Both the position numbers and the translations under genes were made by a program. 64,000 nucleotides of DNA from Plasmodiophora brassicae (taxonomy: Eukaryota): contig CP145420.1 in NCBI GenBank assembly GCA_036867785.1, positions 682,001-746,000 on the forward strand, read 5' to 3'. Below, piece by piece: positions 8,494 to 56,499 of the stretch (the first letter of the stretch is position 1; each line of letters opens with the position of its first letter). Below the pieces are notes generated by a model. The model searched no databases. It saw only the letters and a list, made by a program, of their open reading frames with translations, and had not been told where the DNA came from.

Positions 8494-9798
8494 ATGTACA
8501 CTGACGGGCGGGGATGTCTCAGGGCTGTAGTATGGACGGCCGGGATCCTGATCGCCATTCGCAGTGGGCTTGCCGATCGTGTCATACTGCTGTCCAGCGA
8601 GGGCGATCAGCACATCGTCAATACCTCGGCTGCCGTCGGTCACTCCGGGCTGCTGAATCAATTAATCAGCCGCCCTTGCAGAGGCGGCGACGACATTATT
8701 CCCCTGCCACACGTTGGCAGTGCCGAGTTGGGACCGATCGCGGGTTTCATCAACAGCGTCCCGCTGCACAAGGTACATCTATGTATCAACCGTTGTCTTT
8801 GCTGATGGAGATGGCGAACTGATGCTTCGTAACAGACTGAGAGGGCGGTGCAGTGGGTTCAGGTCAACCTTAAGGGTGTGGAGCTTGAAGAGCAGTGCCG
8901 CGTGTTGACAGCCGCCGACTACCTTGACATGCACTCGCTCATGATCGCCATTGCGTCTACGAGACGCACCTGGAGCGATATCGATGCGATGCGCGGGTTT
9001 CTGTCCAGGAATGTTTTCCGGTTCCTCGCCGATAACGCGCCAGGCCTCATCCGTCTAAATCAGGTCGCCCGTACAGCCAGGCAGAAGGCGATCGGCGAGC
9101 GGATCCATCGTTGCCTCGTCGCTGGAGGTCATGTCGCATTCGTCCATACCGAACCATGGGACAGCGGCTTGGACGTACTGCAATGGGCCGCCGAGAAAGG
9201 ACGACGGTCGATAGTCGAACTGCTGGTGACGGGCCCTGGAATCGACGTGAACGCGCCCAGCCCGAGCGCCCAGCGGTTGCTTCATTGGGCCGCGTTCTGG
9301 GGATGGGTGAACCTCGTAGAGGTGTTGCTCGTATCCCCGACGACAGACGTCAATGCGCGGGATAACGACAGGCCAACGCCCCTGCATTGCGCCGCCGTCG
9401 CTGGACGCAATCACGTCGTCAAGGTGCTACTGAGCTTCGCCGGCATCCAGGTCAATGCGGGCGACGCGAGCAATAAGACAGCATTGCACTGGGCCGTCTG
9501 GTCCGGCCCCAGCAGTAGGCATAGCGAAGTCGTCGAGTTGCTGCTGAGGGCTCCGGGGATAAACGCCAATGCGCGTGACCAGGACTTAATGACGCCGTTG
9601 CACTGGGCGGTTACCTGTCGGCGCGGCTACGCTGTCAGGTTACTGCTGGCGACCCCGGGAATTGACGTCCAATGTCGCGACAAGGCGCAGATGACACCGT
9701 TGCAGAGCGCCTTAGTCTATGGGAACCAGGAGATCGTAGGTCTGCTAGTGAATGCGACCGTGAACGCCGCCAGCGTCGTCTCGATACGATTGGCATAA
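8494..9798 (+). CDS. Putative secreted Skp1/BTB-like + ankyrin-repeat protein; intron 8773-8835
   Basis: Hydrophobic N-terminus (AVVWTAGILIAIRSGLA); Skp1/POZ-like VILLSSEGDQHIV...IIPLPHVGSAEL and VLTAADYLDMHSL; ~6 ankyrin repeats (TPLHCAAVAG, TALHWAV, TPLHWAV, GIDVNA). Confidence 0.85.
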
Positions 9799-15795: not shown

Positions 15796-16681
15796 CTACG
15801 CGGCCGTCGTGCGCTTCTGCTGACGCATCGTGGTGATCTGCTTGTGGACGACGTCGATCAGCATGCGGCCCTGCTCCAGGTTCCCGCTGCGGAACGCGAT
15901 CTCGATGGGCGTCGCCCCATCCTCGTCCTTGTCGAACAGCGACTGCAGACCGGCCTGCAGGACGGCCACGCGAAGCTCTTCGACGTCGCCCGACTTCAGG
16001 GCGTTGAACACGCCAAACCCGATCCCGTCTGATTCGTCATTGCCGCCCGCCTCCGCTTCCTCGTCGGGTTTCGCCTCCGGTGGCGTCTCGGTCGGCTTCT
16101 CGGCGGGGTTCGCGGGTGGCGCCGCCGAGTCGAACTTCTTCAACCGGTCGCGAACTGATCCCGTCCCTGCTTCAGACGACGACGGTTGCTCTTGCTCCGC
16201 TGGAGCGGACGACGCGTTCGTCGTCGGTGGCGCCGACAGCGATTCAGGCTGGGACGACGCCGGGCTCGCTGTGGCCCTCGCCGACAACTTCGGGCCGGAC
16301 GACAGCGTAGACGGTGGCGCGTTCGCCGATAACGACGCCTGCAGGCCCGAGCGGCTCTTGAACGCGGGCATCGACGGGTCGTAGTCGTCCTTGAACACGG
16401 CGTACGTGCCGCGCTCCTTGAACATCTCCAGGAAGTGCACCTTGCAGTAGGGCGTGGACTGGTACATGGCGCAGCTCGTCGCCGACACGACGCAATCACA
16501 TTTCGCGCCTGTCGTTCGCCGCTGTTCAGACGGCGGCCGCCCGGCATGCGCGCGCAGGCGTCCTACATTTGAAGCAGCGCTTGTGGAAGACGGCGTCGGC
16601 CACGTTGACCGCCTCCAACGGGTACACCGTCTTCTGGCACGCCTGGCACTTCGTCGTCGCACCGCCTAGCTTCGCCGACAT
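15796..16681 (-). CDS. LIM-domain protein with C-terminal ankyrin-like repeat; one intron
   Basis: CQACQKTVYPLE...FHKRCFKC|AKCDC...PYCKVH (CRP/plant-type LIM); C-terminal KDEDGATPIEIAFRSGN. Confidence 0.82.
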
Positions 16682-17002
16682 CGATGCCGAATCCCTGTTG
16701 GGGCTGGCACGCGCCCCCGCCTGTCCCTCACAGACCCGGGATATCTTTCCAGATCGCCGTGGCACACGTGGCCAGCGGCGGCCCACGCCGTCATCGCCTT
16801 CCCGAACCGGACAGTCGTGGCCGTGTATTGTCTGGAACAGGTGGCCCCAGGAAGCTGCAGTCGCGCACCCAGTATGTCCTGCAAATGCGTGACTGTGGAC
16901 TGCAACGGTGCGTCAGTGCAGCTACGTGCGGGTCACTCACGGCCCGGGGCACCTTTGTTCAATACACATCGCCGAAGCGCCGCCCGTGCGCGCTGGCCGC
17001 CG

Positions 17003-18973
17003 ATGGTGGGAGTCGCCGCGCGCGCCCTGGCATGTATTCGCGCTCGTCTAGGAGCGTCGTCGTCGACGACCGACCACCTGTTCGGCGTGTTCCGGGCGCA
17101 CCCGTCAGTGGCGACGGCGGTGTCGGCACTGAAGGTGGAACAGGACCGCAATCGGGGCCTGGCCGTCTACCGATGGGTGATCGAATCCAGCCTGCCGGCC
17201 GGTCTTCCGTTCTTCCAGGCCAGCATGGCCTTCTGCAGACGGTCGTACCCTGAGCAGGCACCGATGGTCCTGCAAGCGGCCCTGTCCCGGCAGATTGGCG
17301 TCTATGAACCGCTCTTCTGCATGTTTCTCAGCGCTTGCCGGAAAGCGAGGCCGGTGCTCGTTCAGGACGCATTGGATATGTACGCCAGATGTGGGCCACG
17401 AACCGCTGGCGTTCTGGTCGACATGGCGACGGTTTGCAAGGTGGGCGGGCGCCCTGACGATGCGTTGTTTCTGCTGGACGATGCCCTGGCCGGGAATGTC
17501 GCGATTCCAGAGAGGCTGCTGGCGATGCTGGCAAGGTGCTGTGCGAAGTCAAGGTCGCCCCGGGCCGCTGACCTTGCCGAGCGACTGTTCAACATGATGA
17601 ACGACGAGCGTATCTCGATGCATGATAACATGACAATGTACAGCAACCTGATCAAAGCGCTGCTGGCGCAGGGGCGTTTCGACGCCTGCCTCAAAGCGAT
17701 CTACCTGATGGACCTGCGGCGGCTGCCGCCTTCGGAACCGATTTTCAACCTAGTCCTGAACGCCCTGGCCAAGAATGACCGTTGTACGCTGGCGATGACC
17801 GTGTTCTGGATGACGGTGCAGAGGCGAATCCGATTGTACTGCCCGGTGGTCGGGGGCCTGGCGGCCTCCTGTGGCAGGGCGGCCAACCTGCCCGCCCTGG
17901 AATCCGTCCGACGGTACGCCAACGACCATTCCATGGAGGCGAACGACGTTGTGCTCAGCGGTCTCATCTCTGGGTACGCTCACTGCGTGCACGTCTTCGT
18001 CGCTCAGCAACTGTTCCAGGACCGGTGCCGGGCGACGATGCCCCCCGGCTTCGTATTCGACGCCATGATCGGGGCGTACAGTCTCCATGGGATGCTACCG
18101 AAGGCGATTGCCACGTTCGACCAGATGATCGAATCGCAACGGAAGCCGTCTGAACGGACGCTGACCACCCTCCTTCTCGGGTGCTGTCATGTCGGTGATC
18201 TGGATCGCGCTAAAGGGTTCATCGCTGACTTCCTGCGTTCCTACGGTATCTCGTGTACTGCCGAGTCTTCCCAATTTCTGGTCGATTTGTACGGCAGGCA
18301 CGGCAACCTGGACGATGCCGAACAGATTGTGGTGTCCTCGTTCAACAACGATGCTGCGTCATGGGCCAGTCTTCTCAACGCCTGCCGCGTGCACAAGGAC
18401 ATCGTTCGAGCAGAACGCGTGTTCTCCAAGGTCATCTCGTTGCCGAACGCGTCGCTGGCGTCTGCGTACGTAGAAATGTCAAAGATCTATGCAAGCGCAT
18501 CACTGTTCCCTCAAGCGATCCATATGCGACAGCAGATGAGGGCGCTGGGGCTGGTCGACGGGCCGCGCTCGACAACCGTCCAGCTTCCTGACCGGTCGAT
18601 AACCTTCAAGTCGTGCGATGCGGTGTACCATACGGACGCCAGGCTGAACGCACAGCATGGGCGGATGATCGGGTGCCTGCTGGACAACGGGTACAGGCCC
18701 GACGTGTCGCTGCTCGCCATACAGATGGCCTCCGAGGAAGACGCTCGCCAATCGGTGTACCTGCACAGCGACAAGATCGCGTTGGCGTTCGCGCTCATGC
18801 ACGTGGCACCCTGCGACCCGATTCGCCTGACGAAGAACACGAAGATGTGTCCGGACTGCCACTGGGTCGCCAAGCGCGTCTCCGGTCTGTTGAACCGCGA
18901 CGTCTACGTTCGCGACGTTGCCAGACATCATCATTTCAGACATGGTCAATGTTCCTGTAACGATTACTGGTAG
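17003..18973 (+). CDS. PLS-class pentatricopeptide repeat protein with E1/E2 and DYW domain; intronless; ORF is open from 16817, with an alternative ATG at 16874
   Basis: PPR motifs (MYSNLIKALLAQGRFD, VFDAMIGAYSLHGMLPKAIATFDQM, LVDLYGRHGNLDDAE), E1 WASLLNACRVHKD, E2 AYVEMSKIYA, DYW GYRPD...HSDKIALAF...CPDCH...HHFRHGQCSCNDYW*. Confidence 0.95.
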   Translation: MVGVAARALACIRARLGASSSTTDHLFGVFRAHPSVATAVSALKVEQDRNRGLAVYRWVIESSLPAGLPFFQASMAFCRRSYPEQAPMVLQAALSRQIGVYEPLFCMFLSACRKARPVLVQDALDMYARCGPRTAGVLVDMATVCKVGGRPDDALFLLDDALAGNVAIPERLLAMLARCCAKSRSPRAADLAERLFNMMNDERISMHDNMTMYSNLIKALLAQGRFDACLKAIYLMDLRRLPPSEPIFNLVLNALAKNDRCTLAMTVFWMTVQRRIRLYCPVVGGLAASCGRAANLPALESVRRYANDHSMEANDVVLSGLISGYAHCVHVFVAQQLFQDRCRATMPPGFVFDAMIGAYSLHGMLPKAIATFDQMIESQRKPSERTLTTLLLGCCHVGDLDRAKGFIADFLRSYGISCTAESSQFLVDLYGRHGNLDDAEQIVVSSFNNDAASWASLLNACRVHKDIVRAERVFSKVISLPNASLASAYVEMSKIYASASLFPQAIHMRQQMRALGLVDGPRSTTVQLPDRSITFKSCDAVYHTDARLNAQHGRMIGCLLDNGYRPDVSLLAIQMASEEDARQSVYLHSDKIALAFALMHVAPCDPIRLTKNTKMCPDCHWVAKRVSGLLNRDVYVRDVARHHHFRHGQCSCNDYW

Positions 18974-19045
18974 ACGCACGTCAACGTGATAATATAGAAT
19001 GACGCAATGTGATCGCATTGGGGTTTACTGCTAGACGGCATGGTT

Positions 19046-20020
19046 TCACTCTGCATTGACGGGAGCAGCCGGCGCCTCCATCGACTCCCCGGCCGGTTTG
19101 TCGTCGGCTTCCTGGACGACGGGCGTCGACGACACCTGGACGGGTTCGTCGGCGGACGCCTCGACGGCGACCTCCGGCGAAGGTGCCGGCTGTTCACCCT
19201 CCTCAATCGGCATCTTGGCGCTCTCTTCAGGTTCCTCCACCTTGGCTGGAGATTCGTCTTGCATCGGCTCTACTTCAGGGATGCCACTTGCTTCCGCCTG
19301 CTCAGGAGCTTCTTCCTTGGTTTTGGACGCGTACTTTGCGTCAGGAGCTTCCTCAGCTTCCTCAGGGGTCTCCTCTGCTTCGGCGGTTTCCAGTTCATCC
19401 AGTTCACCGGCGACTTCTTTCTCTTCAGGCAATTCTTCCTCCTCTTCAGGATCTTCCTCGTGTGCCTCCTCCTCGTCGGCTTCGTCGACTTCCTCCTCAC
19501 GGTCTTCCTCTTCTGGCTCCGCGCCGAGGTCTTCTTCGGCCCCTTCCCCACTGACGTCCTCGTCACCTTTGGCCTTCTTGGCCCTGGTCTTCTTCAGCGC
19601 TGCCGTCGCTCGTCGTTTCGCTGGTGCCTTCTTCTGAGCCTCCGCACCTTCCTCTTCTTTCGGTTCAGGGAACCCGCCCTTCGCCTTAACCTTCTTCATG
19701 AACTCCTTCTTGAACTCGGCCTCGATCTTGAACTTGCCCCTAACCTTCACGACGTGCCCTTGATCGATCCCCTTGTCCAGGCCATCCTTGAAATGACGGG
19801 CGAATCCCGCATCGGACACCGTGTAACGCGAGCGGACCCAGTCCTGGATCTGCTGTCGCGACACGGTCCCTTTCAGGTCGCAGATCGCCTCCATGATCAT
19901 ATGCGCGAACGTCGGGTGCTTCGTCTTCGGTGTCGACGTCTTCGCCTTCCCCGCCGCCGCCGCCCGCTTCGGCGTCGACACCTTCGCCTTGCTCGGCGAC
20001 GCTGTCGCCGTCTTCACCAT
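19046..20020 (-). CDS. Linker histone H1/H5 (H15) domain protein with long acidic tail; intronless
   Basis: K/A/P-rich N-terminus and globular HPTFAHMIMEAICDLKGTVSRQQIQDWVRSRY...LDKGIDQGHVVKVRGKFK, then a Glu-rich tail. Confidence 0.8.
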   Translation of the reverse strand: MVKTATASPSKAKVSTPKRAAAAGKAKTSTPKTKHPTFAHMIMEAICDLKGTVSRQQIQDWVRSRYTVSDAGFARHFKDGLDKGIDQGHVVKVRGKFKIEAEFKKEFMKKVKAKGGFPEPKEEEGAEAQKKAPAKRRATAALKKTRAKKAKGDEDVSGEGAEEDLGAEPEEEDREEEVDEADEEEAHEEDPEEEEELPEEKEVAGELDELETAEAEETPEEAEEAPDAKYASKTKEEAPEQAEASGIPEVEPMQDESPAKVEEPEESAKMPIEEGEQPAPSPEVAVEASADEPVQVSSTPVVQEADDKPAGESMEAPAAPVNAE

Positions 20021-27964: not shown

Positions 27965-29323
27965 TCATTGGGTGACGGGAGACAGCGGTTCAGGCTGGCG
28001 CTGGACGCGGTGATGGCGCACCCGTCGGGACCGGTGCGATTCGTGGTTGGACGTGGCGATATCGTAGGCGACGAAGGCGGCCAGGGCGGCGACGATGACG
28101 CCGATGACGATCGTCAGTTCGGCGTAGTCGAGGGGCGGTGAGGGCGGCGCCGTTTGCGCCACGATGCTCTTGACGTGGTCGGCGACCGGCACAAGGACCT
28201 CGAACAGGTGGGCAGCGGCACGGTCGGCCATGCGTTTGGCGACCACGACGCCTTGCGTCCTGATCAGTGCCCCGCCTTTGTTCACGACCTGGCTGGCGAA
28301 CGTGTCGATCTGCCGCTGCTCGATGTGGTACGCGAACAGCAAGCATACGCCAAACACAAGGATGGCGATGAGTGGCATCGAGCGGCTGTACGACCCATCA
28401 CCTGGAACAGCACCAGGCGTCTCCAGCGACATCTTTGCGTTGTCAGTAAAGCGGCGACGTTGATTCACTGACAAGATAGACACCTTTTGTGGGTCAGCGC
28501 CGGCGTCGGTGATGGCGCCAGGGTTGACGACGCCTTTCGGGTCTTCCAGGACGACGACGAGGCTTTGGACAAAGGTGAAGTTCAGCATTTCGTTGCCGTT
28601 GACGATGTCGTCGGCGGTGAGGATCGGCTTCAACCCGATGGACTTGGCGGCGAACAGGACAACGGAGGCGCGGGACAGGCGACGCTCACGCGTACCGTCG
28701 TCCGGGTCGGCAACGGTCGTCGCCGGACAGCATCCGGACAGCAGCGACAGGTACGCCTTGCTGTCGGATAGGTCGTCGCCCAGGTTCGTGATCGTCGCCT
28801 GCGACGCTAGGCGCTTGTTGACCCATTCCATGACCAGGCGCTTGTGGTCCTGATTGGAGATGGCGGCACCGCCGCCGTCTTCACCTTCGTCGCCGGCCGT
28901 CAGTCGGTGCATGGTTCGCGACCGCATCTGCACGTGCACGATCTGCCAGAGCAGGCCGAGAACGAGCGATGGATGATGGCACGAGTCGACGAGGTCGTTC
29001 TCGTCGACGTTGATGACGACGGCAGTGCTTCGGACGGCGTCGAGGTACACGCGCTGGTTCTCGCCCATCTCGAATCGGTTCGTCGGGTGGGCATTGACGC
29101 GAGCAGACGGGATCGACCCAGGGAACACGTGCTCCAGGAACCGGCAGTGCACGACGCCATCGGCGAGGCGTCGCAGGAGGTCCACCGGATCGTCGTCTTT
29201 CCACCCGTCAAGGCGATGCTCGTCGGGAAGCTCGGCGAGAAGGTGCCGGCCGATGCCCTTGATCTCGGCCGCCATGGTGGACGATAGGCGAACGTCGCCG
29301 TCGGTCTGCACGATCGCGTCCAT
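27965..29323 (-). CDS. Fimbrin/plastin-type CH-CH actin-binding domain with two C-terminal TM helices
   Basis: LADGVVHCRFLEHVFPGSI...NRFEMGEN...LVLGLLWQIV (CH1); LVMEWVNKRL...TNLGDDLSDSKAYLSLL...LTADDIVNGNEMLNFTFV (CH2); two hydrophobic helices. Confidence 0.82.
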   Translation of the reverse strand: MDAIVQTDGDVRLSSTMAAEIKGIGRHLLAELPDEHRLDGWKDDDPVDLLRRLADGVVHCRFLEHVFPGSIPSARVNAHPTNRFEMGENQRVYLDAVRSTAVVINVDENDLVDSCHHPSLVLGLLWQIVHVQMRSRTMHRLTAGDEGEDGGGAAISNQDHKRLVMEWVNKRLASQATITNLGDDLSDSKAYLSLLSGCCPATTVADPDDGTRERRLSRASVVLFAAKSIGLKPILTADDIVNGNEMLNFTFVQSLVVVLEDPKGVVNPGAITDAGADPQKVSILSVNQRRRFTDNAKMSLETPGAVPGDGSYSRSMPLIAILVFGVCLLFAYHIEQRQIDTFASQVVNKGGALIRTQGVVVAKRMADRAAAHLFEVLVPVADHVKSIVAQTAPPSPPLDYAELTIVIGVIVAALAAFVAYDIATSNHESHRSRRVRHHRVQRQPEPLSPVTQ

Positions 29324-29525
29324 GGCTATTGGTCGAGTGTCGCTGGGACGCGCGTGCAATTGGTGTGTCACGCCATGGGCACCTGGGACAAGGCCCAACT
29401 GCCTGAAGTGTATGATCACAGATGATGCGGTTCGAGGTTGGACGCGGGCGCCGCCTGAGGCACGAGCGTCTTTGGGCTGCTGTGCGGAAGAGGGGCTGGA
29501 CCGCTGAGTGCACGTTGGCGCGTGT

Positions 29526-31190
29526 TCATTCTGCCGCGTCGACGCTCCTGCAGATACGTTCATGGCGAATCTGAAACGCGCGTCAGGATACTTACACCGG
29601 CCTGCAGGTAGCGAAGCTTGTCCCGGTCGGTGCCCGGCTTAACGTCCTTGTCGATGGGCTGTGGATGGGTACTGCCCTCCTTAACGGCAACAAACGTGAA
29701 GTATCCCTGAGAGGCCGGGCCGATGTCAGATTGATGCTGGAGCGAAGCTTAGCTAGCTGCTGACCGAGTTCGTGTGCTCGCCGGCATCCGTTTCCGACCC
29801 GAAGGTCGGCAAATGCTTCAGCTCGACAACCTCGACTCGGACACCGACCTTGATATTTGCATAGGAATAAGACCCAGCGTAGTGACAGCCTGGCACACGC
29901 AGCTCACCTCCATTGACGTACGGAACACGCGATTGACCTGGGCGCGAACGATGACACACGATCCAACGGGAACCTGACTATTGCTAAACGAGCAGCTGCA
30001 GCGGTATGGCGAAGGGCAACACGCTATACCTGGGAGACGAATTTCATCTTGTCGAGTCCTACGGTAAGGATGGCCGACCTGCACAGGCGCAGCGCGGCGA
30101 TCTGTGCGGCCTGCTCCATCCACTGGAGAATCGTCCCACCAAAGGCGATACCGAGAGGGTTGGCGTGCGCCGGCATGACCGCCTTCGTCATCGACAGCTT
30201 CGTATCTTCGACCGGGACCTCGACCAGGCCGGGCGGAAGTGCTGTCAGCGTTTCCAGATGCGCGGTCCACATCTTTGGCACATCGATTACCCGGGCTTTG
30301 ACTCGTTCCTTGAACGCCCGGTTGCGTTGTTGTGCGGCTTTGTAAGCGGCACGCTGTACGTCATATTCAGGAACTCATTGCCGTACTGGGACGATCGTTG
30401 ACGCGTACCTCCTCGGGCGTTTCAGGTTCAAGCGCCGGAACGGGTCGCGGTCTTCGCTTCTTACTCAAAGCGACAAACTTCAGAAGGGCTCGACAGCAGA
30501 AGTCGCGCTGCCCCGTTAGCGGGTGCTCGACGTAGACGACCACCTCGATTTCCATGCTGCACCGAGCGAGGCGTCAAGCACGGTACCAACTAAACGCCCG
30601 CAGACGAGACGCACCTCGACGAAAATGCAGCGGTCACCTTGGCTGTAAGGATGATGATGTCGCTGACTCTAGCCGGCGTCCTTTCAAGACACGCGTCAGC
30701 TGGCGACACCCAGCACCCAGCGTTCGTACCGGAAATGGATTTCGTCCATGGACACGGTGACAACGCTCCCCTAGCCCGCAATTGATCCTACATTGCCAAA
30801 CGCCCACGAGCCATGCATCCTTACTTCCGAATGTCGAATCGCGCAGATGCCCGCGATCTTATCAACCTGACAGCCGCTTCGTCAGCAGCCGATGACCGAA
30901 GCATTGGCCTACCCGTACCATTGCCAGCAGCTCCCCGCCATAGCAAATGTTGAACATCGTACACTGACTGGGCGTCAGAGTTTCCAGTCCCTCGACGATG
31001 GAATCCTCCGGCACCTTGACCTTCGCTGCCACACAGATCTTTAGGTCCATTTCATCATGCAGCCCGGCCGCTGGGCGGTCCTACGTTTGCCATTCTTGTT
31101 CCGACTGAGATAGTATCGCAGGGCGGCGGCACCACCGGCAACAGCAATGCATGCTCCAGCGCCAGCGGCCATGATCCGTTCCGGCCCCAT
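29526..31190 (-). CDS. Acyl-CoA thioesterase, double hot-dog (ACOT7/11/12-like), multi-exon
   Basis: NICYGGELL, AFSSSMEIEVVV, VMPAHANPLGIAFGGTILQWME, VNRVFRTSMEV, YFTFVAV. Confidence 0.88.
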
Positions 31191-47540: not shown

Positions 47541-48658
47541 TTATGATTTCAGTTGCACGCTGAAGCGTCGGTCGACGGTGCTCGAGTTGTGGATTGGCGG
47601 ACAGGTCGGATGGACGAGGTCGATGGCAATGGCAACGTGGATGGGGCCTGGGCGCTGCGCCCGCAATCGGACGTTGGAGATCGCGTCGGTCAGCTCGTGG
47701 AGCAGGCCCTGGGCGCAGATCGTCGGACACGTCGACCCTATCGTGGCGTCAGGTGCCGTTTCGCAACGCGACTCGACGCCCCAGTCGATCGACGTGTTGG
47801 CGCTGATCGTCAGCGACACTTCCGTCTCCGCTAGCTGACGCCGCAATTCCTCCTGGAACCTACCGACCCCTGCTGAGCGCCGATTCATGCACATCGCGTT
47901 GTCAGGATACCTCTGCTTCAGCTCCATGTACATGGAACGCCAGACGGCGTCCTCGTTGGGGTCCCCAGGCGCATCCCGGGAGGACCTCGACAGGGACCCT
48001 CTATGGGCCTCATCATATACAGACAACAGCAAATCGATCCCGTTCAGCCAGGACGCCTGTCGATCGTCTTCGGCGACCAGGTCGTCCAGAAGCTGCGACA
48101 TCTCGCCGATGACAGCCTCTGCAGGTCGCACGACGTGAACACGAGCCGCACACGAGAACGTTCGCGAGCGTACCCATGCCGTTGTGGTGATGGAGAAGCA
48201 GGTCGCCTTCGACGATGCCCGCGAGGCGGGCGCGGTCAGGTTCGCGTACTGGACACGGCGATGTCGCAGCGCTGCAGACGGCATCGGGCGCCGCCAGCGT
48301 CGCGATTTCGTCGACCAGCCTGTTGGCGGCGTCGACCTCCCATTGATCCAGCGCGTTCGACACGGACCGTATCGTGGCTGTTACCTGCTCGGCGATCTCG
48401 ACCTGCGTCCTGGACAGCATCCACATTCAGCACGCACGCGATGCCGGCAGTCCCCTGCTCGCACCTGCAGGCTCTGGGGGCGACCTCCGGGTCCGCTGTG
48501 ATGACGGGCAACACAGCATCCATTCTGCAATTAACACGATCGGAATGCAGTACCACCCGCCGATAGCTATGCAGGGCAGCGCGTAACGCGTCATTGTTAC
48601 TGATGTCGTGCTCGGCTCTGGAGCACGGTAACCCGTACTCGGCGTCCCTGGAATTCAT
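47541..48658 (-). CDS. Hypothetical multi-exon protein
   Basis: Chained ORFs with GT-AG junctions (EAVIGEMSQLLDDLVAEDD..., FQEELRRQLAETE...); no family recognised. Confidence 0.45.
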
Positions 48659-48897
48659 CACCAACGATACGGCGAGGATTCGGATCGCTCCTGAGAAGGG
48701 CGAAAACGCACAGGCGACCTCGCGAGTCTGCCTTGCGGTTGCCGTCAGCAGTGTAGCAGGTGCGCGCGATTTTGTTCCCATTGGGCGCGGCGTCGGGTCC
48801 GGGGCAGACCGCGCGCACCGACCCGTCACGGCGAACGACTGCAGGTCGCCGACCCGCGGACCTGGGGCTGGGTGAGGTTGTGTTGTCAACGTGGCAA

Positions 48898-49323
48898 ATG
48901 TCGACTGGGCGGCGTCGGTACGACGTGGTGGTGGCCGACTTTTGCGTGATCCCGATGGGGACGGCGTCGACGTCGATGACGCCGTACGTGGCCGAGTGCC
49001 AGCGCGTCCTGCAGCGATCCGGCCTGACGCACGCCATGCACGCGTACGGGACGAACGTCGAGGGCCCGTGGGACGACGTCATGAACGCCATTCGCGATTG
49101 CCACGACGCCGTACACGCCATGGGATGCCAGCGCATATCAACCAGCATCAAAATCGGTCCTGCACGCCACCCGCATGCGATCGTTCGCAGGAACGCGGCC
49201 TGATACGAGGTGATGACAGGGACGCGGCTCGACAAACCGTCGACGATCGAGGGGAAGAAGCAGAGCGTTGCTGATGTGTTGCTTCATGACGAGCAGCACC
49301 ACCGGGCTTCCCCAGACGGATGA
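48898..49323 (+). CDS. Thiamine-binding protein, MTH1187/YqgV/Ecm15 family; one intron (~49157-49219)
   Basis: ADFCVIPMGTASTSMTPYVAECQRVL..SGL...HAYGTNVEGPWDDVM..IRDCH...RISTSIKI|GTRLDK. Confidence 0.9.
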
Positions 49324-49549
49324 TGATGATGATCCTAAAACGAATCCGGGTTGCGTTCCCGGCTTGCCTCAACAGTCTGGCGATATGCCAGATCGTGTGT
49401 GTCGCTGCAGACGCGGTCGCTCAGCCATGCGTGTGCAATTATTACATTCTTCAATGTTATCCAGACACGTGCTGCAGTGTACGTGTGACGGTCCATGTTG
49501 GAAGAGCAATATATCGACAGGTACGGTCCTGGTAGCCGGGTCTGTCACG

Positions 49550-52500
49550 ATGGACGACATCAACGAAGCGGACGACGACGCGCTTTCGCTGGACAGCCTC
49601 GAGGACAAACCGGAAGCGAGCAAGGACAGCGCGTCGGACGTCAACGATGACGCAGGCGAGACCAAAGACAAACCTTCGAGCGTCGACCCGCAGACCGATC
49701 CGGTGAACACGGGTGCCCCCGTTGACCGCGCCTCGTTCGACAACAAGCCGGACGCGCCCGATATCGATCTAGACGCTGCGCTCGCTGCCGTCCCCAACAT
49801 CTTCCCTAATCAGGACGAGGAACCGTCAGCCGCCGTCCTGCCGCCCGACAACACGGCGGATATACTGGCGGCTATTGACGAAGGCGCCAAGGTGCTCGCC
49901 GATGCAGAGCTGGATGTCCCCAGGTTACAGCTCGGTTCCATCGCCGCCGAAAATCAGGCGCCACCTCAGCCAGATGGCGACGCCACATCCGAACACGAAC
50001 TGGCACAGGAACAAACGGCGAAGCCTGTTGGTCTACCAGCGCCCGACGGGGCACTTCCTATGCCTGTGCAGGTATGGCTCCCCATCTTGGGTGGAGCGTT
50101 TCCATAACGTGTGTCGGACAGGTTGCCGATGTCGACGATGATGGTGACGGTGCTGCGGGTGATGCGGACGTAGCCGACGAGGAGGACGACGTGGTTGATC
50201 CTGATGACCCGCTCGTGGCGCGCCTGCAGGCGGCCATGATGGCGCAGTTGCAGGACGCGGCGACGCGCCTAGACGAGAACCTGCGCGAGCGCAACGAGGA
50301 GGTCAAACGCCTGAACAAGAAGCGGGAGACCATCGGTGTCGACCTGTATGGCCTGCAGCAGCAGCTCGCGCGCATGCAGATGCAGCTGGAGAAGACGCAC
50401 GACCGGTTCAATATGTTCAACCGGTTGCGAGCCAAGGCGGAGGAGGATCGGGAACTGCTGCTGGCCGACCTGTCTTCGAAGAGCGCGGCGAGGGACACCG
50501 CTCTGCAACATGCCGAGCTGATCGCACGCGAGTTCAACAACGTCAGCACGACGTTGCGGCAGGTGGCCGAGTACAACGAGTCGATCAAGAGCGAGATCAA
50601 GGTGACGCGACGGGCGGCATACGCCGAGGAGGCCGAGATGACGAAGCAGGAGAAGGAGAAGAAGGCGCAGGACTACCAGATCGCCGCCATGAACGAGCAG
50701 ATCGCCGGGTTGCAAGCGCGCGTCCAGACGCTAACGGAGCAGGTCGCAACGCAGAAGTCGCAGACAGGTGGCGCGCGCGAGACGATCCAGTTGGCGTTGG
50801 ATGAGATGGCGCAGATCCGCGCCGATAAGAACGAGTACATCTCGAAATGGAAGTCGGCGCTGATCGCGCTGTCGCGCCGCAACAAGGCCTTGGAAGGGTG
50901 CGATCGCGAGCGGCAACGCCTGCAGGCCGAGCTCGTTCGTCTGGACAGCGAGTACGCCGGCTTCGTCAAAGACGTACGCCGCGAGCAGGAGACCAACGAG
51001 AAGCTTACGGAAGTGCTCACCAAAGTCATCACCGAATGCAAATTTATCGAGGCTCAGATCGCCCGAATTCAGGTACGAACCCCGACGGAAGACGCTTTGG
51101 CCCTGTGTCGTGACACGTTGTACCAGACGGCGAGAACGAAGGCGTCGTCTGAATACGATGTGTTCAAGGACCAGCTGGCGAAGACGGATGAGCAACTGCA
51201 GGAAGGTTCGAGTTTCTGTGGATGGTTCCTGGCCGGCGTCTGTGCTTAGTGCAACAATGACAGTGCAAGGGCAGCGCAGGCTGTTGGAGCTGGAAATCCA
51301 GCGCATCGAGAAGTGCATCTCGGCGAGCGATGCGGCCAGGACGGCGATCGAGAACGAGATCCTCGAGAAGATGTCGAATCAGACGACAACGGAGCAGGGG
51401 ACGCAGAACACCCTGAAGGCCATCATGAAGCTTCGCAAGACGATCGAAGCGACCGTTGGAATATCGTGCTGGCTGGTACGGCAGGCGGCTGAGACGGGTA
51501 TGTCGTTGTACAGGAGAAGAAGATCGGCGCAGCGCAGAACGAAATTGCCCGCGTCAAGGTCGACATTCTGAACACGACGGCCCACAACAAAGACCTGAAG
51601 AAGACGTTGGCGGCGTTCGAGAAAGAGGTATTAGCAGAAAGGGCGTGTGAGCATCAGGCGATTGACGCCTTGGATATGTAGCTTAAAGAGAAAGACCTGC
51701 TGATCGACAAGTACGAGACCGAGAACGCGTTGCGCAACGACATGATCCAGAAGAAGCAGATCGCGATCGATGCGCTGAACAGGAAGTACGAGCAGCTGAC
51801 CAAGAACGTTGTCGAGGACACGAGCAGTGCTTCGCTGGAAGGCAAGATCGACGGACTCAATCGTGAACTCCAGGTAGGGGTCTGAAACCACTGCCACGCT
51901 CAGTGCTGACAAGCCGAACAGGCGGTACGGAATTCGTCCACTGACCTACAACGGAAGTGGATCGGCACCCAGACCGAGTTACTGGAGGTGGAAGCCATCT
52001 CGTCCGCCGAGATCAATAAGGTCGCCGAATTGGCCGCGAGGCACACCGTCCTCGGCCAGAAATCCAAGCGGCTTCAACGTCTGCGCGCCTCGGTGACCGG
52101 TCAGCAATGCTGGAATCGAGTTGCGCTGTACCAGTACCTGACTGGTCGGAACGGCAGATGAGATCAAGGAATTGCGCAAGACGATGACGTCCATTCACTT
52201 GGAGATCACGAAACTGAACGGCCTGCTGGTGGAATTTAAGACACGGCAGGAAACGTTGGGCAGCGAGAACCGGACATCGGAGATCACGTTCAAGGAGCGC
52301 GGTGTGCAGATTGAACAGGAGCGGGCGGGCGGCGAGAAGAAGATCGAGGCTCTCCAGGCAGCCCGAGATAGCCTGCTGGAGGAAGTTAGCGAGATATCCG
52401 CCCAGATCCTCATCTGGGAACGCAAGATCAACCTGGAGAAGGAAACGCAGCAGGCCATTGACCCTGAGGTCGGCCAAGCCGAGGTAACCGGTCGCATGGT

Positions 52501-55524: not shown

Positions 55525-56499
55525 TTAGGCAATGACGTTGACTTTGTCGGCGATGGCGAGTTGCGCCCGTGTTAGGCTAGACAGGTAGCTCACAGACAGC
55601 AGGTCGCTGACCGATCCCTGGAACGCCCCCTCGAACCATTCGCCGTCGAACGCCTGCGGGACCGCGCTGACAGCGCTCGCCAGCAGTCTTCCGACGTCGT
55701 TGTCCGGTTCGATCTCGCCGCTGACGACGCGATCGACGTAATCGCAAACGTCGGCCAGCATGCTGTGCAGGCTCTCCACCGACATCTGCAGCCCCTGCTG
55801 CTGCGTCAGCAAGGTGGCCGGCGAATCGAAACGGTCATCGTCCGGCTGCGACTGAATCAGGGCGTCGATCGCGATCTTGTCGTCGTCGAATGCAACGAAC
55901 TCGACGTCGACCTCGTCGAACACGCCTAGAAGCGGGGTCGCGTCCGCGCTTGACGTGATGACCGATGGCGTGTACCCGCAGACGGAGAGCTTGGACCCTT
56001 CCAGGCTTGTGTCGACCGCGAGTATTACAGGGCGTTGACCCGACATCATGGACTGGAACGACCTCGATATCGTCACGCTGGACTGCGTCAGCGACCCGGT
56101 CGTGTACCACCCGACGACGGTCAACGTGGACGACACCCGCGTGTACAATTCAAGCATGGCCCTGTGGTAGTCCATGTCGACAGCAACGACCTGGTCGTCC
56201 TGTTCGTTGTGCGGCACGGGGAACGAGTCCTTGATCTGGGTCTGGCCGCTGGGCAGCCGGACGCCGAGCAGCGTCCCGATAACGCGCTGCTGCTTGGCGT
56301 TGCGCCGCTTGTAATGGTCCAGTATCGACATGATGACGACCGGTTCGACCGTGAACGGCGCCGGCAGGCTGGCCGGGCGCATCTGGACGGCTCGATGCTG
56401 GAGCGACATCGCGTCGAGACAAGCGCCCTGCACTGCGGTGTCCGCCACGGACTCCGCCGCCGCCGCACCTCCCTCATCGCCACCTGGCTGCCCCACCAT
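55525..56499 (-). CDS. EIF3F: Translation initiation factor eIF3 subunit F (MPN domain)
   Basis: VEPVVIMSILDHYKRR...RVIGTLLG...DSFPVPHNE...VAVDMDYHRAMLEL...VVGWYTTG; C-terminal YVDRVVSGE.PDNDVGR. Confidence 0.92.
   Translation of the reverse strand: MVGQPGGDEGGAAAAESVADTAVQGACLDAMSLQHRAVQMRPASLPAPFTVEPVVIMSILDHYKRRNAKQQRVIGTLLGVRLPSGQTQIKDSFPVPHNEQDDQVVAVDMDYHRAMLELYTRVSSTLTVVGWYTTGSLTQSSVTISRSFQSMMSGQRPVILAVDTSLEGSKLSVCGYTPSVITSSADATPLLGVFDEVDVEFVAFDDDKIAIDALIQSQPDDDRFDSPATLLTQQQGLQMSVESLHSMLADVCDYVDRVVSGEIEPDNDVGRLLASAVSAVPQAFDGEWFEGAFQGSVSDLLSVSYLSSLTRAQLAIADKVNVIA

Follow-up and report, generated by a model that had tools for sequence, protein, structure and literature searches.

In organelles, C-to-U RNA editing is catalyzed by DYW deaminases, on which programmable pentatricopeptide repeat (PPR) RNA editors are also based; to our knowledge, DYW proteins have no counterpart in animals. 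In the active state described for OTP86, the catalytic glutamate lies 2.53 Å from the zinc-bound water, while in the inactive state it is ion-paired with K915 of the KNLR motif, and the E894A and E894Q variants are soluble yet inactive (PMC7611903). In PPR56, editing is abolished when any of the second-zinc ligands H123, C130, or C132 is mutated; within the PG box, the P2A substitution is severe and G3A much milder, and the residue following the glutamate is Lys or Arg (PMC10482289). Two plant proteins, EMB175 and IPI1, carry Ala or Ser in place of the glutamate with the zinc ligands kept, and the authors suggest that these proteins do not catalyze editing directly (PMC10940495). Outside plants, the paradinids, which are Rhizaria, have PPR-DYW proteins with the glutamate and mitochondrial C-to-U editing (PMC11946409), and a 2026 survey reports 31 DYW domains in Rhizaria, with HxE...CxxC in most of its representative non-plant domains (PMC13386178). 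Here, we analyze a DYW gene of the clubroot parasite Plasmodiophora brassicae, a rhizarian of the Phytomyxea, located in a 64,000-nucleotide stretch (positions 682,001 to 746,000 of the forward strand of contig CP145420.1, assembly GCA_036867785.1; "the window," in which all coordinates below are given), whose product carries aspartate where the catalytic glutamate is expected and belongs to a family in which most named members lack that glutamate.

The gene corresponds to the longest ATG-to-stop open reading frame (ORF) of the locus, 16874-18973 on the plus strand (699 codons followed by TAG; residues are numbered from its first codon). Its product matches the P. brassicae protein CEP03665.1 (PBRA_003272) with 100% identity over the shared part, and the public annotation of the gene is DYW domain-containing protein. 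The codons CAC AGC GAC at 18764-18772 encode H631, S632, and D633 (GAC, 18770-18772), and the translated ORF reads ...SVYLHSDKIALAF... across these residues. When the product is aligned by HMMER with 9kfx_A, the structure of a synthetic PPR-DYW protein, 'ylhsdkialaf' stands opposite 'cyhseklaiaf'. Since 'lhsdkia' is thus aligned on 'yhsekla', D633 occupies the position of the catalytic glutamate. An HSD triplet at these codons had been proposed in an earlier reading of the locus made without database searches (the sequence-only reading), and codons, translation, and alignment agree with that proposal. The features of the gene are as follows.

17003-18973, plus strand: probable true coding sequence, starting at Met44 and encoding 656 residues
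17195-18361, plus strand: PPR tract, made up of roughly ten PPR-like motifs of helical-hairpin form, parsed by hand upstream of residue 390
18047-18361, plus strand: canonical P2-L2-S2 triplet that closes the PPR tract (residues 392-496)
18362-18562, plus strand: TPR-like motifs E1 (residues 497-530) and E2 (residues 531-563), from the 9kfx_A alignment
18560-18586, plus strand: PG-box region GPRSTTVQL, with Pro kept and Gly replaced by Arg; the equivalent in 9kfx_A is 'kepgcswiev'
18563-18970, plus strand: complete DYW cytidine-deaminase-like domain (residues 564-699)
18764-18772, plus strand: HSD, with His631 as a catalytic-zinc ligand and Asp633 in place of the proton-shuttle Glu; codons invariant
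18833-18844, plus strand: KNTK instead of KNLR (Leu to Thr, Arg to Lys), with Lys654, the equivalent of OTP86 K915, kept
18848-18862, plus strand: CPDCH, in which Cys659 and Cys662 are catalytic-zinc ligands and His663 is invariant in the family
18926-18970, plus strand: HHHF...CSCNDYW, which comprises the structural (second) zinc site and ends in DYW

The gene product, hereafter the HSD protein, has a PLS-type PPR-E1-E2-DYW architecture, and its two zinc sites are intact. Its PPR tract is matched by the Pfam families PPR (9.8e-21), PPR_2 (2.4e-15), and PPR_long. Residues 395-500 align on the PLS motifs of 9kfx_A, as part of a continuous alignment of residues 395-699 with 9kfx_A 309-612 that runs through P2-L2-S2-E1-E2-DYW (203.7 bits). 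The Pfam profile DYW_deaminase (PF14432) is matched in full, positions 1-93 of 93, by residues 606-699 (E = 7.9e-27; 93.4 bits, with a cut-off of 24). The catalytic-zinc ligands H631, C659, and C662 are present, as are the second zinc site and the terminus (H663, H686, C693, C695, and D697-Y698-W699); by position, His686, Cys693, and Cys695 match PPR56 H123, C130, and C132. The sequence-only reading had described the zinc ligands (H and CPDC) and the terminal HHF...CSC.DYW as intact and KNLR as changed to KNTK, and the translation bears out each of these statements. An AlphaFold2 model of residues 560-699, computed from a 22-row alignment, has a mean pLDDT of 93.2 and a pTM of 0.88. When the model was compared with the Protein Data Bank by Foldseek, 9kfx_A ranked first (TM 0.91; rmsd 1.9 Å over 140 columns), and TM values of 0.73-0.77 were obtained with the DYW domains of OTP86 (7o4e and 7o4f) and DYW1 (7w86). 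The DYW fold, comprising the deaminase core and the gating domain, is therefore predicted to be fully retained.

The aspartate is genuine, since other gene calls and contigs of several studies all agree on it. The five other gene calls in the 90% identity cluster of the HSD protein, taken from NCBI and Logan assemblies, all read HSD, and the calls of the cluster vary at four other positions only (R/H, R/Q, S/T, and T/S). Contigs of four runs from four studies have no alternative letters, indels, or joints at 18764-18772. A check of GAC against a sequencing error, which the sequence-only reading had called for, thus comes out in favor of GAC. We found nothing in support of a sequencing or assembly error or of contamination from the host plant, and give this explanation hardly any credence: it is refuted by the identity of HSD in the gene calls and contigs just described, and further points against it are the G+C content of the locus (~62%; the whole window has ~60%), the P. 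brassicae-type genes that flank it on long contigs, and the best plant matches, which reach 29-36% identity over the full match compared to 40-49% for P. brassicae paralogues. HSD is also not a chance pattern, because only 2 of 147 aligned DYW representatives, the HSD protein and its paralogue P0032, have Asp in the glutamate column.

These representatives come from a HMMER scan of residues 480-699 against 1.84 billion cluster representatives, which yielded 2218 hits with E values up to 0.001. The HxE column was read from the C-terminal 160 residues of 173 proteins, namely, the best 150 of the 2218 hits and 23 others. Three of the hits, whose last 160 residues are not a DYW domain (P0115, P0134, and P0140), were dropped before tree building. 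In the resulting 147-row FastTree phylogeny, the HSD protein is found in a 33-row clade (support 99), with the other 114 rows on the opposite side; a quick IQ-TREE phylogeny of 45 rows gave the same split (support 100), with weak internal support. Among the 20 of the 32 other clade rows that were looked up, 17 are P. brassicae proteins and 3 are environmental sequences (P0033, P0034, and P0039). One more named paralogue, P0205, was added by a profile search with the clade alignment, in which 8000 candidates, mostly plant proteins, were scored. P. brassicae has, then, at least 19 named DYW proteins, the HSD protein included; all of the named paralogues of the tree fall in the 33-row clade, and they are the closest relatives of the HSD protein, at no more than 49% identity. 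Within the 64-kb window, no second DYW gene was found. The low identity to plant DYW proteins (about 29-36%) and the deep, well-supported separation of the clade led us to reject a recent transfer from the Brassica host.

Of the 33 clade rows, 11 lack the glutamate, compared to 2 of the 114 rows outside, both of which read HSQ (Fisher test, p = 9e-7, an overstated value). All 11 clade rows without it are P. brassicae proteins, which corresponds to 11 of the 19 named paralogues; HSE is kept in the other 8. The replacements are diverse. Asp is present in the HSD protein and in P0032 (HVD), HGP in P0029 and P0040, and HSV in P0047, P0049, and P0136, and single cases are HCT (P0030), HST (P0042), HSA (P0083), and HAC (P0116). 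The zinc ligands are kept in all 11. In a 22-sequence, 140-residue alignment, the invariant columns are H72, C100, C103, H104, R121, D122, H127, F129, G132, C134, C136, and W140, which include both zinc sites, while the glutamate column varies. The NLR of KNLR is found in none of the 11 clade rows without glutamate and in 10 of the 22 with it (Fisher test, p = 0.013, inflated by kinship). Taken together, the invariant zinc sites, the variable glutamate, and the lost NLR indicate that the zinc scaffold is under selection while residues of the catalytic site drift. In the quick tree, the state changes between Glu and non-Glu at least 8 times, a rough count because of the weak internal support, and the two Asp-bearing proteins are not sisters. 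The view of the HSD site as a singular oddity, taken in the sequence-only reading, therefore has to be given up: the HSD protein belongs to a family-wide trend, of which it is the mildest member.

That mildness concerns the residues around the site. The HSD protein retains Ser632 and Lys634, the first two residues of KNLR (Lys-Asn), the Pro of the PG box, and the terminal DYW and, judged by these, is the mildest case among the paralogues without glutamate. Its PG box had been called degenerate. The letters GPRSTTVQL are as described, but most of the divergence is shared with P. brassicae paralogues that keep HSE, whose PG box reads xPGRT(S/T)LxLPDR and not PGxSWIE as in plants; because of this clade-specific form, the divergence is largely typical of the lineage.

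Two other observations concern the ends of the family. Zinc ligands have been lost in the clade members P0133 and P0171 (one reads RSE...MPPGAH and the other HGE...CPASH), both of which still carry a C-terminal CSC..(D)(Y/F)W. The family members form a gradient of decay of the deaminase center. Four sequences from metagenomes or the European Nucleotide Archive (ENA), P0033, P0034, P0039, and P0048, have HSE together with KNLR or QNLR and are basal to the P. brassicae clade; their source may be other phytomyxids or rhizarians of the soil, and they could be of use in dating the family.

The reading that we favor, with a probability of about 0.4, is that the HSD protein recognizes a site in mitochondrial RNA, that its own deaminase is crippled, and that catalysis, if any, comes from an HSE paralogue. 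In such a scheme, the protein would enter the mitochondrion by means of an N-terminal presequence, and its PPR tract would bind one mitochondrial transcript. The DYW domain would be inactive or very slow as a deaminase and would be kept as a zinc-stabilized structural, RNA-positioning, or partner-binding module. The target cytidine, if edited, would be deaminated in trans, and any of the eight named paralogues that keep HSE could supply the activity. We favor this reading because Asp stands where OTP86 tolerates neither Ala nor Gln, according to the reported variants, and where the glutamate must reach the zinc-bound water; because the predicted fold is intact, with a pLDDT of 93.2 and a TM of 0.91 to an RNA-bound PPR-DYW protein; and because EMB175/IPI1 offer a plant precedent for a domain without Glu in which the zinc ligands are kept (PMC10940495). 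We infer from the substitution that the domain is inactive, and likewise infer that the protein resides in mitochondria, has an RNA target there, and has a partner acting in trans. Taken separately, loss or strong reduction of the protein's own deaminase activity is rather probable, and, given such loss, a role in editing together with a trans deaminase has an even or slightly better chance. The sequence-only reading had offered a pseudo-deaminase or an enzyme of altered chemistry. The first of these directions is supported by ten further paralogues in which the glutamate is replaced far more radically (by P, T, V, A, C, or D) and the zinc ligands are kept, by the absence of NLR from all 11, and by the OTP86 mutants; for altered chemistry, we found nothing. 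The statement that the motif is neither the canonical one nor the HAE-type variant stands, with Ser preceding the Asp and DYW at the terminus.

Several points weigh against the favored reading. Asp keeps the carboxylate, and, as the least degenerate of the copies without glutamate, the HSD protein could still be active. A test of Glu-to-Asp in a DYW domain was not found in the literature available, which has E-to-A and E-to-Q only. Nothing resembling the short trans-acting DYW proteins DYW1 and MEF8 was identified here. The case for mitochondrial targeting is drawn solely from composition, and the Fisher p values are overstated because the paralogues are related to one another. Last, the text of the P. 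brassicae mitochondrial-genome paper, as far as it was available, reports no C-to-U editing, and RNA editing appears there only in the title of a reference (PMC6823432).

The first two of these points lead to a different explanation, in which Asp633 itself acts as the proton shuttle, perhaps via a bridging water and probably more slowly, and the HSD protein is a self-sufficient C-to-U editing factor. The other residues known to matter are present, namely, the ligands of both zinc ions, Ser632, Lys634, Lys654, the PG-box Pro, and DYW, in a fold predicted with high confidence; in the PG box of PPR56, G3A is much milder than P2A (PMC10482289). Four of the paralogues without glutamate (the HSD protein, P0032, P0040, and P0049) have the Lys-Asn of KNLR, and only the two Asp-bearing ones among them, which are not sisters, also carry Lys after this position. 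However, the shorter side chain of Asp would shift the carboxylate away from the zinc-bound water, and the Leu-Arg of KNLR is changed too. Glu-to-Asp mutants of other deaminases of the cytidine deaminase (CDA) fold lose orders of magnitude in kcat. Moreover, the replacements in nine other paralogues are incapable of proton shuttling, which shows that catalysis is dispensable in much of the P. brassicae DYW family. On balance, we regard an active Asp-type editor as somewhat unlikely.

A further alternative dispenses with deamination. In plants, splicing or cleavage is the task of some DYW proteins, among them PpPPR_43 and CRR2, and the HSD protein could be a non-editing factor of RNA processing, concerned with the splicing of group II introns or with the end formation, cleavage, or stabilization of a mitochondrial RNA, in which the DYW domain is a structural remnant. 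The mitochondrial genome of P. brassicae is reported to have 54 introns, whose borders with the exons are difficult to place, and non-ATG starts in 9 of 32 genes, while Spongospora has 5 introns (PMC6823432); 54 introns imply a large demand for specific splicing factors. The absence of glutamate in 11 of the 19 named paralogues is also in line with this explanation. What speaks against it, and makes it in our view quite improbable, is that the full E1-E2-DYW module, both zinc sites, and the terminal DYW are retained, none of which is needed for simple RNA binding.

The reading of the HSD protein as a recognition factor with a crippled deaminase can be extended to the whole family, a proposal that we make with reserve and consider doubtful. 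P. brassicae would have mitochondrial C-to-U editing of the plant type, served by DYW proteins in two tiers: a minority of HSE proteins as the catalysts and a majority of pseudo-DYW proteins as the site-recognition factors. The full-length pseudo-DYW proteins may borrow catalysis through DYW-DYW contacts, and such a system may be an independent reinvention, by point inactivation, of the plant system of PPR-E/E+ proteins with a trans-acting DYW protein. The HSD and HVD forms may then be transitional intermediates or the first natural working Asp-type members of the cytidine-deaminase superfamily.

The query gene is an intact nuclear gene of P. brassicae. Contigs of the four runs from four studies are colinear with the window over 16500-19100 with zero joints, so that the gene is intronless. 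Three of the runs are taken for RNA, and their contigs start at 16966, 16974, and 17001, with two of them ending at 18989 and 19012; since the RNA status of these runs is a guess, what they say about expression and transcript ends amounts to weak hints. Within these bounds, the gene is apparently transcribed, and the contig ends hint weakly at an mRNA whose start lies beyond the first ATG of the 16874 ORF. A contig of a DNA run passes straight through. The N termini of the paralogues align to the HSD protein from about 17009-17090. On the basis of this alignment and of the contig starts, we took Met44 (17003) as the start, and it is likely the start codon in use. The choices of gene callers conflict within 16817-17003, with products of 718, 699, 672, 516, and 445 residues. 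The ~45 residues from Met44 are rich in Arg, Ala, and Ser, with 5 R+K and 1 D+E, and in composition resemble a mitochondrial presequence.

As to the gene models themselves, the public ones may overshoot the true N terminus or fall short of it. In run X7, several short alternative contigs (60 and 31 bases, two with one mismatch) and two loose ends occur just ahead of the gene and at its start (16631-16721 and 16985/17057), which suggests that this stretch is polymorphic or repeated in that sample.

The integrity of the gene bears on whether it is a functionless paralogue, in which a recent neutral or slightly harmful Glu-to-Asp change arose in a redundant gene heading for loss. No orthologue outside P. 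brassicae was found by word-based searches with the DYW part and the PPR part or by the HMMER scan, a result that fits such decay; word searches are weak evidence of absence, and an orthologue of 50-90% identity could hide in the 50% cluster of the HMMER scan. The best non-self match to the PPR tract has 27% identity. The decay gradient of the family, with P0133 and P0171 at its far end, also fits. However, the ORF is open across 699 codons, and all zinc ligands are kept. The 445 residues common to six gene calls, which span the last PPR motifs, E1, E2, and the DYW domain, are identical save for one position in the PPR tract; the three further amino acid polymorphisms lie upstream of these residues. 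A weak argument is added by the three putative RNA runs, whose contigs cover the gene. A gene on its way to loss is therefore very unlikely.

Downstream, the DYW gene lies tail to tail with a gene for a linker-histone H1/H5 protein (19046-20020, minus strand; PF00538, E = 3.8e-11), which has a long Glu/Ala/Pro-rich tail and is separated from the DYW stop codon by 72 bases. One contig, of run X9, reaches from the DYW gene into the linker-histone region. Three more ORFs of the window have Pfam matches.

8929-9798, plus strand: ankyrin-repeat protein
27965-29563, minus strand: calponin-homology domain protein
55525-56499, minus strand: protein with JAB/MPN and MitMem_reg domains

Among the other long ORFs scanned, seven have no Pfam match, and one has a sub-threshold match only. 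The AT skew is −0.163 in the 4-kb bin 16001-20000, which holds the DYW gene, and +0.161 in the bin 48001-52000.

The DYW domains counted in Rhizaria and the plant DYW domains without glutamate were already known. We did not find in print a natural HxD form or a family-wide loss of the glutamate with zinc sites kept in a protist, in a literature that did not extend to the detailed tables of PMC13386178. By title and abstract, nothing relevant pairs Plasmodiophora with DYW. One paper, in the parts available, has two parasite genes annotated as pentatricopeptide repeat-containing among its differentially expressed genes, not described as a DYW family; another, on Plasmodiophora and pentatricopeptide proteins, concerns, as far as its text was available, PPR genes of the host and not the P. 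brassicae DYW family. A natural HxD variant lends itself to testing how strict the need for the glutamate is. The family picture weighs more: at least 19 DYW proteins occur in one protist, and the majority of them are without the glutamate but keep both zinc sites. If trans-catalysis is true, the division of labor between recognition and catalysis arose outside plants as well, by a different route. The family also leads one to expect, in the mitochondrion of an important crop pathogen with its many introns, C-to-U editing that has so far gone unreported or else splicing assisted by DYW proteins.

Compared with the land-plant PPR-DYW:PG editors (OTP86, PPR56/PPR65, and the synthetic 9kfx), the HSD protein shares the PLS PPR-E1-E2-DYW architecture, the full-length PF14432 match, the ligands of the first (H...CxxC) and second zinc sites, the terminal DYW, and the predicted fold, with a TM of 0.91 to 9kfx_A. 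It differs from them by the Glu-to-Asp change, by Arg for Gly in the PG box, by KNTK for KNLR, by its occurrence in a rhizarian parasite and not a plant, and by an identity of about 29-36%. A functional parallel is offered by Tad3/ADAT3, the subunit without activity in the tRNA adenosine deaminase heterodimer, in which the zinc ligands are kept, the catalytic glutamate is absent, and an active paralogue is the partner. Tad3/ADAT3 belongs to another deaminase family and acts on another substrate, and the likeness is one of analogy only.

The Arabidopsis EMB175/PPR103 and Nicotiana IPI1 proteins, like the HSD protein, have kept the zinc ligands and substituted the glutamate (PMC10940495). The substitution there is to Ala or Ser, in contrast to the conservative Asp seen here; the HSD protein is not their orthologue, and a single gene is concerned there, compared to 11 of 19 named paralogues in P. 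brassicae. The protist PPR-DYW proteins of Paradinida, Naegleria, and Acrasis are likewise non-plant DYW-type proteins, presumed mitochondrial, and are linked to mitochondrial C-to-U editing (PMC11946409). As described for the paradinid and fungal domains, the His, the Glu, and both Cys are kept, with a 2-residue deletion between HxE and CxxC (PMC11946409), whereas the HSD protein is without the glutamate and without this deletion, its His-to-Cys spacing being 28 residues as in 9kfx_A. The DYW:KP domains of hornworts, lycophytes, and ferns, which are associated with U-to-C editing, also have a variant signature near the active site. In these, however, the Glu is kept and preceded by a hydrophobic residue, often Ala, and there is a KP motif and no terminal DYW (PMC11332814); with Ser, Asp, and a terminal DYW, the HSD protein is not of the KP type. 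Finally, plant proteins of the PPR-E or PPR-E+ kind, working with DYW1, DYW2, MEF8/8S, or PCW1, embody the same principle as is proposed here, a recognition factor served by a trans deaminase (PMC11897456). The plant proteins are without all or part of the DYW domain, whereas the HSD protein has the whole domain and differs by a point change, not by truncation.

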